A DNA stretch of 64,000 bases from Patescibacteria group bacterium (GTDB taxonomy: Bacteria; Patescibacteriota; Patescibacteriia; Patescibacteriales; UBA12465), in the NCBI GenBank assembly GCA_041651355.1, contig JBAZJK010000001.1, positions 613,883-677,882 on the forward strand. The letters run 5' to 3'. Below the pieces are notes generated by a model. It saw only the letters and a program-made list of their open reading frames with translations. It had not been told where the DNA came from and made no database searches. This document shows positions 60,748 to 64,000 of this stretch, piece by piece (the stretch's first letter is position 1; every line of letters begins with the position of its first letter). The translations under genes and the position numbers were made by a program.

Positions 60748-62559
60748 TTAGTCCTTAAAAACCACTTCCTCCCCTTCACTAAAATCTTGACCACTTAATC
60801 TAGGCGCTGGAGTAACTACGCTTGGCTTAGATTGTGGTCGCGAAGTCTTTTCCGGCCGACCCCTAAAATCCAGGGGTTGGATATTCTTCAAATCTTGCAA
60901 AGACAGGCTAGGGGCATTATTTTCTAAAGATAGTTTAGCTAATTCAGCCTGTTTGGCAAGCTGCCTGGCTTCTAGCTCTTGTTTCTTATCTTGCTTTTTC
61001 TTACTCAAACAATCCTTGCAGAAGATTGGCCTGATTCCATCCGGCACGAAAGAAACTTCGGTAATCACGCCACAAGCTGAGCACTCAGCTTTAATACCAC
61101 CCTGACCCTTAGTTCCGACAGTCTTGGCGCTTCCCCTGTCTTGACTAACGACTTTCGGCGCAGTTACCGGCGTCGCGCTTAATGATTCTAATTGTTTCGG
61201 AGATAAAGTAGCCGGACTCTTCCTCAGCTGGAAATTATCTTCATTAGGATTAATATTTTTTACCACTGTCATGTTTTCTTCATAGCTCTCATGCCAGTTC
61301 ATAATCTTCTCTTCCACCGCTTCCCGTTCGGAAGCATACTTCTCTCGAGAATAATGAATGACTTTCTCGGTGTTTCCCGTCTTTTCTTCCCTAGTTAAGG
61401 GCGGTAAACCGCGAGCAGAAAAAGGGTTGGAAGAAATGCCGTCGATCATCAGCTTCAAATACATCTCGTATTTAGGCAAATTAACCAAGTCTTCTTCGGT
61501 AAAAGTCGGAGTAAACTCCTTGACCAATTCTTCGGCATCAGTCGCTCCCACTCGGAAGACGACCATCGTGCCGACATTACCAAAAACAGCCGGTCGCACC
61601 TTATCGCTGAGCTGTTCGATATACTGATGGGCCAAGATCAAATTCAAACGGTATTTACGGGCTTCTGATAAGATATTAGCAAAGCTATCGGTCGAAAAAT
61701 TCTGAAATTCATCAATATAAAGATAGAAGTCGCGCCGATCCTTCTCGGGCACATCCACCCGGCTCATGGCCGCTAACTGAATCTTGGTAATCATCATCGC
61801 TCCCAAAAGAGCCGAATTATCTTCGCCAATCCTGCCCTTGCTTAAATTCATGATTAAGATCTTTCCGTGATCCATGATATCACGGATATCAATGGCTGAC
61901 TTGACTTGGCCGATAATATTTCTCATCAAAGAGCTGGACAAGAATTGGCCGACTTTATTCTGGATAGGAGAAACAGCTTCCGCCGCAAACTTATCCGCAT
62001 AGGAAGCAAATTCTTTCTCCCAGAAAGATTTGACTACTGGGTCCTTAATGTTAGCTACGACGCGTTTTCGATAGTTCTTATCGGATAACATTCTGACTAC
62101 CCCTAAAAGAGTAGAACCGGGAAAATCTAAAATCGCCAAAATAGCATTACGCAAGATATATTCTAGACGTGGCCCCCAAGAATCAGCCCAAAGTTTTTGA
62201 AAGACTCCGATCAAGCCAGAAGCCACTAGATGGCGCAAATGGGCATCAACTTGTTCGACTACGTTAAAGGCAATCGGGTAATTTATATCTGAAGGATTAA
62301 AATAGACTACCTCGTGAATCCGATTGCTTGGAATATACTCGATAATCTTTTCTGCTAGATCGCCATGAGGATCTACAACCGCCACGCCGTGTCCGGCCCG
62401 GATATCATCCACGATCATATTCTCTAGAATGGTTGATTTACCCATACCAGTTTTCCCAATCAAATACATATGCCGACGTCGATCGTCAGTTTTGATGCCG
62501 AATTTCTTAAATTCGTTACGAAAGGTTGTCTGCGCAAAAAAAGCTATTTCTTGAGGCAT
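60748..62559 (-). CDS. VirD4/TraD-like (type IV coupling protein family) P-loop ATPase with C-terminal zinc ribbon
   Basis: Walker A IGKTGMGKST, Walker B FYLYIDEFQNF, AHQY motif. C-terminal CSACG...VSFVPDGIRPIFCKDC (CxxC-N20-CxxC), followed by a K/E-rich and P/S-rich tail. Confidence 0.7.
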   Translation of the reverse strand: MPQEIAFFAQTTFRNEFKKFGIKTDDRRRHMYLIGKTGMGKSTILENMIVDDIRAGHGVAVVDPHGDLAEKIIEYIPSNRIHEVVYFNPSDINYPIAFNVVEQVDAHLRHLVASGLIGVFQKLWADSWGPRLEYILRNAILAILDFPGSTLLGVVRMLSDKNYRKRVVANIKDPVVKSFWEKEFASYADKFAAEAVSPIQNKVGQFLSSSLMRNIIGQVKSAIDIRDIMDHGKILIMNLSKGRIGEDNSALLGAMMITKIQLAAMSRVDVPEKDRRDFYLYIDEFQNFSTDSFANILSEARKYRLNLILAHQYIEQLSDKVRPAVFGNVGTMVVFRVGATDAEELVKEFTPTFTEEDLVNLPKYEMYLKLMIDGISSNPFSARGLPPLTREEKTGNTEKVIHYSREKYASEREAVEEKIMNWHESYEENMTVVKNINPNEDNFQLRKSPATLSPKQLESLSATPVTAPKVVSQDRGSAKTVGTKGQGGIKAECSACGVITEVSFVPDGIRPIFCKDCLSKKKQDKKQELEARQLAKQAELAKLSLENNAPSLSLQDLKNIQPLDFRGRPEKTSRPQSKPSVVTPAPRLSGQDFSEGEEVVFKD

Positions 62560-62563
62560 AACG

Positions 62564-62854
62564 CTATCTTAATAAATTATCAGGATTCTCATTAGCATTA
62601 AGGCTGGTGGTGCCGCTATCTAAGCCATAAGCAGCTAGGAGATCTCTAAAAAGGGGCGGTAAATATAATAAGCCCCAGACGATCGGGATGACGATCAAAA
62701 ACACCTTGACCCAGCCGATAATCTTTTGCCAACGGACATAGGTCTTAACATAGCGAGACAATTCCAAAATTTCTTGACTCACCGCCAAGTTTTTTTCTAA
62801 TAGAATTCTCATGTCTTCTGACTCAGTAGAGAGACGAGATTTCACATCTGCCAT
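62564..62854 (-). CDS. Small membrane protein (hypothetical)
   Basis: One central TM region (IIGWVKVFLIVIPIVWGLLYLPPLF). The ATG at 62854 avoids the 19-nt overlap with nrdG that the track start at 62878 would create. Confidence 0.4.
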   Translation of the reverse strand: MADVKSRLSTESEDMRILLEKNLAVSQEILELSRYVKTYVRWQKIIGWVKVFLIVIPIVWGLLYLPPLFRDLLAAYGLDSGTTSLNANENPDNLLR

Positions 62855-63594: not shown

Positions 63595-63783
63595 CTATTT
63601 TTCACAAACCTTAAAAGTCTTCCGATCCTTATACTCGGCCGCTTTGCCTTTGTTGTAATTCTGAACCGGGGTTAACCAACCGACGACACGGCTGTAAACA
63701 ATGCATTCTTGACGTTGAGTTTGCACAGGGCTCATATTTTTTAATTTTGCCTGGGATGAATGCTTCAAGGATTCCGTTCTCAA
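63595..63783 (-). CDS. nrdD: NrdD C-terminal glycyl-radical domain, separated from the body of nrdD
   Basis: ECIVYSRVVGWLTPVQNYNKGKAAEYKDRKTF matches the RxxGY...WNxGKxxExxDR glycyl-radical motif of class III RNR. The first possible starts are a TTG at 63783 or an ATG at 63735. Confidence 0.7.
   Translation of the reverse strand: MRTESLKHSSQAKLKNMSPVQTQRQECIVYSRVVGWLTPVQNYNKGKAAEYKDRKTFKVCEK
63760..63775. repeat. Direct repeat copy A flanking the nrdD insertion
   Basis: + strand atgcttcaagGAttcc. The 10-bp core at 63760-63769 is identical to 63870-63879, and the extended 16-mer matches at 14/16. Confidence 0.8.
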
Positions 63784-63842
63784 ACCATTAACCCAAACTT
63801 TTATTTTATTTATAATTTTTATATTAATTCAATGATAGCAAG

Positions 63843-64000
63843 CTAGGCTTCTACTCTGACCACCTCTTCATGCTTCAAGTCTTCCTGATAACCGATTTCT
63901 TCATCGCATTTAGGGCAATACTTATGTTCACCCGATAAATAGCCGTGTTTAGGACAAATTGAGAAAGTCGGAGTAATGGTGAAATAAGGCAAACGGTAAT
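63843..64000 (-). CDS. nrdD: Anaerobic ribonucleoside-triphosphate reductase NrdD, 3' end of the main body (continues beyond the window; ends at a premature TAG)
   Basis: The minus-strand frame from 63998 reads YRLPYFTITPTFSICPKHGYLSGEHKYCPKCDEEIGYQEDLKHEEVVRVEA*, which is the NrdD Zn-ribbon region. The stop is at 63843-63845, before the glycyl-radical motif. Confidence 0.8.
   Translation of the reverse strand, partial: YRLPYFTITPTFSICPKHGYLSGEHKYCPKCDEEIGYQEDLKHEEVVRVEA
63870..63885. repeat. Direct repeat copy B flanking the nrdD insertion
   Basis: + strand atgcttcaagTCttcc, 110 bp from copy A. Confidence 0.8.

Follow-up and report, generated by a model that had tools for sequence, protein, structure and literature searches.

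A class III ribonucleotide reductase gene layout in which the glycyl-radical loop is encoded by a separate small gene

The usual description of a glycyl-radical enzyme is of a single chain with a C-terminal domain that has to swing out of the barrel for activation, and the enzyme is destroyed once oxygen cleaves the chain at the radical glycine. To our knowledge, the only workaround to this cleavage is GrcA, which serves pyruvate formate-lyase (PFL). Canonical class III ribonucleotide reductase (RNR), as exemplified by the NrdD proteins of phage T4, Escherichia coli, Thermotoga maritima (4COI/4U3E), and Prevotella copri, is a single chain. Its glycyl-radical domain comprises a zinc site followed by a buried glycine loop and is highly mobile (PMC11226230), and the oxygen-dependent cleavage of the chain at the radical glycine has been described (PMC3019208). 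We analyzed a stretch of 64,000 nucleotides (nt) from a Patescibacteria genome (assembly GCA_041651355.1, contig JBAZJK010000001.1, positions 613,883 to 677,882; hereafter the 64-kb window), at the end of which an nrdD gene terminates before the glycyl-radical motif, and the motif is found on a small gene that lies between nrdD and nrdG, the gene for the activase. This NrdD belongs to the same family as the canonical enzymes by the Pfam NRDD, NF006126, and TIGR02487 models and has in common with them the ATP-cone, the barrel, the finger-loop cysteines, the zinc ribbon, the RVxG[Y/W/F] loop, and an NrdG2-type activase. It differs from them in that the chain is cut between the zinc ribbon and the glycine loop, and the loop is a gene of its own.

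Several described systems resemble this layout in part. GrcA/YfiD (and T4 Y06I) is a small autonomous glycyl-radical protein that is activated by the activase of PFL and enters a barrel that lacks an intact loop (PMC8683613, PMC13450708), and according to a 2026 review, spare-part proteins are known for just one class of glycyl-radical enzymes, the formate lyases (PMC13450708). GrcA is about 127 amino acids (aa) long, is homologous to the C terminus of PFL, and serves as a backup to a PFL with a radical domain of its own. The peptide described here (41–72 aa across species) is instead homologous to NrdD, and it alone supplies the radical loop, since the adjacent body gene has none, either in the window or in 74 related loci. 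In Pseudomonas aeruginosa, a functional class II RNR is encoded by two adjacent genes, NrdJa and NrdJb, and the C-terminal piece carries a zinc-finger-containing module (PMC9669993). Unlike the present case, that enzyme is of the B12-dependent class, and the part that is split off is a large C-terminal redox/IscU-like module without a radical. The nrdA gene of Aeromonas phage Aeh1 is reportedly split by a homing endonuclease gene, mobE, into two polypeptides that reassemble and are active, as Friedrich et al. are said to have found (PNAS 2007); the gap that we describe, part of an ancient and widespread layout, contains neither an open reading frame (ORF) nor a mobile element. The likeness to the bypassing of phage T4 gene 60, in which matched codons also flank a noncoding gap, is superficial: bypassing of that type involves a take-off codon with an immediate stop and a stem-loop, and a gap and frame that are conserved, and neither is the case here. 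We found no earlier description of a split NrdD in the open-access full-text literature or in the 2026 review, although a mention elsewhere is possible. The layout appears to be undescribed in the literature (a statement that could be incomplete), though the genes themselves are already annotated in databases.

The nrdD body frame, which lies on the minus strand and is cut by the end of the window, is ...PYFTITPTFSICPKHGYLSGEHKYCPKCDEEIGYQEDLKHEEVVRVEA; it reads to ...CPKCDEEIGYQEDLKHEEVVRVEA and then meets a TAG at 63845-63843. The sequence that holds the glycyl-radical motif, YSRVVGWLTPVQNYNKGKAAEYKDRKTF, is found in an ORF at 63595-63783 (minus strand) in a frame other than that of the body. 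An earlier note on this DNA had reported the TAG, the frame of the motif, a direct repeat that spans the junction together with its flanks, and the arithmetic by which loss of 110 bp would fuse the two frames, and we confirmed all of these facts on re-reading. The motif does lie in another frame, but the 62-aa ORF with a TTG start in which the note had placed it is unlikely to be the gene, because 72 orthologous small genes point to the ATG at 63735. The conserved N terminus MSP(I/V)QTQRQEC sets the start at this codon and defines a product of 46 aa (MSPVQTQRQEC...).

Together, the two products span the NrdD profile in order. Through the junction, the window agrees letter for letter with an independent assembly (L001, SRR8542065), which adds 376 residues of the body, and the full body gene has about 682–685 codons in sister contigs. 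The body fragment matched Pfam PF13597 with E = 1.9e-115, and within the 562 positions of the Pfam NRDD profile, the body occupies 178–529 and the small ORF 530–562. A full-length, near-identical body (P0001) matched NCBIfam NF006126 with 1032 bits over positions 2–651 of 684, and the 46-aa protein covered positions 649–683 of this model and 549–580 of the 581 positions of TIGR02487. The coverage of NF006126 by the two proteins indicates that nothing is missing or duplicated. In a search of 5.8 billion proteins with a conceptual fusion of the two, each of the top 120 matches covered just 86–90% of the query, with 82–96% identity. Most of these proteins are 671–703 aa long (a few are shorter and probably partial), and those with a named source are from Patescibacteria. 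All 10 of the homologues that we inspected among the top 120 stop 4–20 residues past CPKCDEE and lack the glycyl motif.

The features of a class III RNR are present at this locus (the NrdD barrel, the finger-loop cysteines, the zinc ribbon C-P-x-H...C-P-x-C, and an adjoining NrdG) with the exception of RVxG[Y/F/W] at the C terminus of the same chain, which is found instead on the 46-aa product. We aligned the concatenated body and small protein of 15 diverse split enzymes. YCxGWD, SMCCRL, and the ribbon C-x2-H...C-x2-C were invariant in the body, as were R8, C11, S15, R16, V18, G19, P23, N28, G30, K31, E34, and R38 in the small subunit. By comparison with published NrdD structures, SMCCRL and YCxGWD would represent the thiyl (finger) loop and the second active-site cysteine.

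The split is not peculiar to this genome. We examined the 80 most similar loci, taken from contigs with one genome per species, and placed the end of the body and the glycyl motif in each by local tblastn. The genes are split at 74 of the 80 loci, and six encode a single chain (e.g., Ancylomarina, CPKCETEGKHHICEVYSRIVGY); this proportion describes an NF006126-like NrdD subfamily, not NrdDs at large. Split genes are carried by many lineages of Patescibacteria, by DPANN and Thermoplasmata archaea, and by Halanaerobiales (including isolates of Orenia metallireducens and Halanaerobium), Acetomicrobium, Thermotogae, and Acetothermia. In these loci, NrdD terminates just past the zinc ribbon, and RVVG[W/Y/F] is encoded by a separate gene of 41–72 aa. 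The gene order is body, small gene, nrdG in 65 loci and body, nrdG, small gene in nine, among them the loci of the Orenia metallireducens and Halanaerobium isolates; nrdG is syntenic in 77 of 82 sequences (the 80 loci, L001, and the window). Among species, the frame of the small gene relative to the body takes all three values (0, 1, and 2), the small gene starts between −29 and +814 nt from the stop of the body, and a 1-nt spacer indel distinguishes two near-identical loci, L005 and L008. In a neighbor-joining tree of the bodies, the unsplit forms are dispersed among the split ones; several branches are artefactually long, and for this reason we draw no inference from the tree about the number of fission or fusion events.

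The small gene has the properties of a gene in its own right. The 72 small genes start with ATG (66 genes), GTG (three), or TTG (three) and encode 41–72 aa, with a median of 47. In Halanaerobiales, Orenia, Thermotogae, and archaea, a canonical Shine-Dalgarno (SD) sequence, AGGAGG, lies 6–10 nt 5' of the start (for example, aaaggaggtgacacaggatATG in Orenia, aaggaggtaaaattGTG in Halanaerobium, and caaggaggcataaaagTTG in Thermotogae, which overlaps the last codons of the body). The window has 48 ORFs with 150 aa or more, none of which has an SD-like core at −20 to −4 and the leaders of which are about 80% A+T; the lack of an SD sequence before the small gene is thus normal here, and its leader, aaaattaaaaaatATG, is typical for the organism, which appears from its leader sequences to initiate translation without SD pairing. 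In three loci from Acetothermia and Thermotogae (L053, L080, and L081), the small gene starts with TTG, overlaps the body by 20–29 nt, and has its AGGAGG within the last codons of the body; these small proteins have a longer N-terminal extension (65 aa) and lack the otherwise conserved cysteine.

Selection acts on the small gene as a protein-coding sequence. Between the window and the nearest other species (L002), the proportion of differences in the small ORF was 0.01 at nonsynonymous (pN) and 0.71 at synonymous (pS) sites. Among 30 sequences, the median dN/dS was 0.12 over the 111 usable pairs of 435, the other pairs being omitted because the synonymous distance was saturated or too small. 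When 1.84 billion cluster representatives were searched with the small protein by phmmer without filters, 1111 matches at E ≤ 0.001 were returned, and 145 of the 150 best representatives are 40–115 aa long. The Pfam and NCBIfam matches of the small protein are to NrdD models only, with no homology to the PFL C-terminal domain. Public records (RefSeq and GenBank) already call the small genes as separate coding sequences of 44–65 aa under the name [quoted passage not shown]: MFA5163565.1 is the exact window protein as a 46-aa coding sequence, and the isolates are represented by WP_143786648.1 (Orenia metallireducens), WP_018247994.1 (Orenia marismortui), and WP_114457115.1 (Halanaerobium).

We considered explanations in which nrdD is, or can become, a single gene. 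The earlier note had put foremost an insertion that excision would remove, and two of its readings take this form: a nonautonomous element resembling a miniature inverted-repeat transposable element (MITE) inserted into nrdD, inactivating it and leaving a 10-bp target-site duplication, or recombination or slippage between the repeats acts as a reversible ON/OFF switch, so that loss of 110 bp yields an active, fused NrdD in a subpopulation. Both draw on a striking arrangement. CTTGAAGCAT is a perfect 10-bp direct repeat, with copies at 63879-63870 and 63769-63760 (sense strand) spaced by 110 bp; the copies and their flanks match at 14 of 16 positions, the interval is AT-rich, and removal in silico of one copy plus the 100 bp between them opens a fused frame, ...QEDLKHSSQAKLKNMSPVQTQRQECIVYSRVVGW.... 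Repeats of this size, however, occur here at chance frequency: the window contains 46 pairs of 10-mer direct repeats no more than 200 nt apart (about 0.29 per 406 nt), and 13% of first-order Markov randomizations of the 406-nt region hold such a repeat. No inverted repeats bound the interval, and in a blastn search with the 120-nt interval as a check for a MITE, we found no further copy in the window or in the 80 related loci, except in the identical contig L001. Nine sister contigs (L091-L099) have a spacer of the same length, 107 nt, but their two repeat sites agree at only 5–8 of 10 positions, which makes the perfect repeat of the window a private coincidence of one or two substitutions; in L002, the closest other species, the repeat is absent, yet the genes are split. 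In other species, the spacer ranges from 18 to 117 nt, differs in length in every species, and cannot be aligned. An "empty" fused site at this position is not seen in any relative, and the linker from CPKC to RVVG in the restored protein would be 35 residues long, compared with 8–13 (CxxC to RVxG) in natural unsplit relatives. The strong purifying selection on the small ORF shows that it is not the remnant of a pseudogene. A switch is further contradicted by the fixation of the split state in 74 of 80 species. Contigs from at least 10 samples encode the small protein of the window, and in the 10 contigs with an identical small protein in which the junction was read (the nine sisters and L001, which is identical to the window), the full 107-nt spacer is always kept and no fused allele was found. 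A metagenome scan with the left-junction 21-mer TATCAGGAAGACTTGAAGCAT gave nine matches (L082-L090), all to an unrelated conserved gene that shares the 21-mer by chance, and so speaks neither for nor against an excised allele. With the start at ATG 63735, moreover, the second copy of the repeat falls outside coding sequence, in the untranslated spacer. We conclude that the 10-bp repeat is a strain-level coincidence with no role, and we regard the inserted element as extremely improbable and the switch as having equally little to commend it.

A single polypeptide could also arise by recoding, if ribosomes bypassed the gap or shifted frame from the body into the frame of the small ORF, as in T4 gene 60. 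The LKH codons do match at the candidate take-off and landing sites, and the downstream frame is open for 16 codons ahead of the ATG. The stop, however, lies eight codons past the take-off site instead of adjoining it, the two frames do not overlap and have stop codons between them, and the RNA of the gap folds no better than shuffled sequences (z = −0.51). A scan of the gap against Rfam found no family at the gathering score, and sub-threshold matches to Thr_leader and sR44 were rejected. The variable frame and distance (down to the single nucleotide that separates L005 from L008), the position of nrdG inside the gap in nine loci, and the ATG and SD sites of the small genes rule out frameshifting, bypassing, or splicing as a general mechanism, and we judge recoding in this genome to be very improbable. 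An error of sequencing or assembly, or a recently decayed pseudogene, might be suspected because the source is apparently a metagenome-assembled Patescibacteria genome, in which indels are possible; but at least 10 samples yielded independent assemblies with the same layout, the architecture recurs in isolate genomes of Orenia and Halanaerobium, where the small proteins have RefSeq WP_ accessions, and both parts retain 80–96% amino-acid identity despite nearly saturated synonymous sites, which reduces the chance of an artefact to almost nothing. In the last alternative, the peptide is a true GrcA-like spare part for a full-length NrdD encoded elsewhere, and the truncated body is noncatalytic (e.g., regulatory). 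The conceptual likeness to GrcA/YfiD speaks for this, and our data on this genome come from the 64-kb window. Against it, the body keeps every invariant catalytic motif and is extremely conserved; synteny of the body, the small gene, and nrdG holds throughout the 74 split loci; and the profile coverage of the two proteins is exactly complementary. We therefore think this explanation very unlikely. Of the four readings that the earlier note had offered, the comparative data thus contradict the insertion, the switch, and recoding or bypassing; the fourth, that of a genuinely split enzyme, has strong support, but its likening of the peptide to a GrcA-like spare part needs correction, as the peptide is the sole radical-bearing part. 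Orthologues with two ORFs but no flanking repeats, which the note had named as the evidence that would overturn an insertion, are what the 74 split loci, the spacer sequences, and the sister strains present.

What we observe is a stable natural split with a separate small radical gene, and we hold this with high confidence: there are two genes with their own start signals, their profile coverage is colinear, both are under purifying selection, and the arrangement is conserved across a wide phylogenetic range. Very probably, the products make up a class III RNR of two polypeptides, in which the radical subunit stands free and is activated by NrdG. In such an enzyme, the large gene would supply the ATP-cone, the catalytic barrel with its cysteine finger loop, and the zinc ribbon, and would then terminate, so that the glycyl-radical domain is cut past its zinc ribbon and ahead of its glycine loop. 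The 46-codon gene, translated from its own ATG, would supply the RVVGW glycyl-radical loop. Judging from canonical NrdD structures, the loop of the peptide would enter the barrel and face the finger-loop cysteines, in the place of the C-terminal loop of the single-chain enzyme, and by homology, NrdG would abstract a hydrogen atom from Gly19, after which the radical would shuttle to the thiyl cysteine in each turnover.

Several points weigh against this model of the enzyme. The assembly and the activity of the two polypeptides are predictions from sequence, and the docking of the peptide is argued from homology. The window holds just the last 52 codons of the body, and as regards any other RNR, we viewed the genome through this window only. 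The advantage of a replaceable peptide is conjecture. If the two-polypeptide enzyme does exist, one can speculate that the location of the radical on a peptide of about 5 kDa allows NrdG to reach the glycine without a whole domain swinging out, and, equally speculatively, that after oxygen cleavage at the radical glycine only the 46-residue peptide has to be remade and not the 685-residue body. The peptide might then act as an exchangeable radical cofactor that is activated off the enzyme, docks, and is replaced after oxygen damage, a proposal that we offer tentatively and with less than even confidence. A possible corollary is that the split frees the C terminus of the body, which bears CxxC or CC pairs in several lineages.

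The features of the locus are collected in Table 1. In sister contigs (L091, L092, and L094; positions 364-822 in L091), nrdR, which encodes a zinc ribbon and an ATP-cone, lies immediately 5' of the nrdD body, and the operon reads nrdR, nrdD body, small gene, nrdG, and an ORF of 95–96 aa. From the position of nrdR, the split enzyme is probably under NrdR control; in our genome, the matching stretch falls past the end of the window. NrdG of the window matched Pfam Radical_SAM and Fer4_12 and scored 217 bits against TIGR02495 (NrdG2; cut-off 131), in agreement with the earlier note's view that nrdG is intact. By tblastn, the 96-aa ORF is in the same place in at least 36 Patescibacteria loci, and it has no match in Pfam or NCBIfam; it may be a further, uncharacterized member of the nrd operon.

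Table 1. Coordinates of the split nrdD locus and its neighbors in the window
Feature	Position	Strand	Description or basis
nrdD body gene, 3' end	63843..64000	-	last barrel elements and zinc ribbon, 20-residue acidic tail, TAG
Zinc ribbon CPKH...CPKC of the body	codons 63956-63906	-	sequence
Upstream repeat copy CTTGAAGCAT	63870..63879	-	within body coding sequence, codons for D-LKH
Untranslated AT-rich spacer, 107 nt, with stop codons in the body frame	63736..63842	-	between body stop and small-gene start
Sigma-70-like hexamer pair TTGAAT-18-TAAAAT in the spacer	63803..63832	-	tentative candidate internal promoter for small gene and nrdG
Downstream repeat copy	63760..63769	-	in spacer, 25 nt 5' of small-gene ATG
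Small glycyl-radical gene, 46 aa, MSPVQTQRQECIVYSRVVGWLTPVQNYNKGKAAEYKDRKTFKVCEK and TAG	63595..63735	-	orthologue starts, profile matches, selection
Radical glycine of RVVGW, codon 19 of the small gene	63681-63679	-	motif
nrdG, radical-SAM activase, 232 aa	62860..63558	-	begins 36 nt past small-gene stop
96-aa ORF with one predicted hydrophobic helix, directly 3' of nrdG	62564..62854	-	conserved position

We made several further observations. The spacer is 85–88% identical to that of the window in L091 and L094-L099, whereas the third codon positions of the flanking genes are only 60–72% identical. This suggests that the spacer is a constrained element, for which the promoter-like pair is one candidate, though an AT-biased composition could also raise the identity. 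The pair has 9 of 12 matches, and its sequence is kept in sister strains; the region contains six such sites, with 2.8 expected.

An inter-chain zinc bridge through Cys11 of the small subunit was considered and rejected as a general feature, because some split forms (L053, L057, L080, and L081) and unsplit forms lack the cysteine. In 13 split loci (L004, L011, L013, L015, L017-L020, L027, L031, L042, L047, and L063), a cysteine pair closes the body and/or the small subunit at the C terminus (...NNPTCC, ...ERCSTC, ...EDSCC, ...DCGC). The pairs look like the tails that act as redox shuttles in class I and II RNRs, and the proteins of the window itself are without them. The body of a Thermoplasmata locus (L073), which is also C-terminally split, contains an apparent intein with LAGLIDADG-like motifs at the conserved YC|CGWD site. 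Just downstream of the nrd operon in this lineage lies a gene (60748-62559, minus strand) for a 603-aa homologue of TrwB/TraD-type coupling proteins with a C-terminal zinc-finger tail, the families of which (PF10412 and PF23477) were taken from the equivalent gene in L093.

If the proposal of an exchangeable radical cofactor holds, the enzyme would be the first glycyl-radical enzyme in which the radical is obligatorily carried on a separate subunit. It would parallel the separate radical-storing subunit of class I RNRs and would represent a repair strategy in small-genome anaerobes at oxic-anoxic interfaces. A two-polypeptide enzyme would carry the idea of a spare part over to ribonucleotide reduction, and a natural, widespread radical loop on a 5-kDa polypeptide would be a simple system for the study of activase recognition and loop docking. 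Because the small gene is easily missed or mislabeled, an nrdD gene of these groups that looks truncated should not be counted as a pseudogene when metabolism is reconstructed. The split enzyme would also bear on how DNA synthesis proceeds after transient exposure to oxygen in Patescibacteria, DPANN archaea, and halophilic anaerobes.

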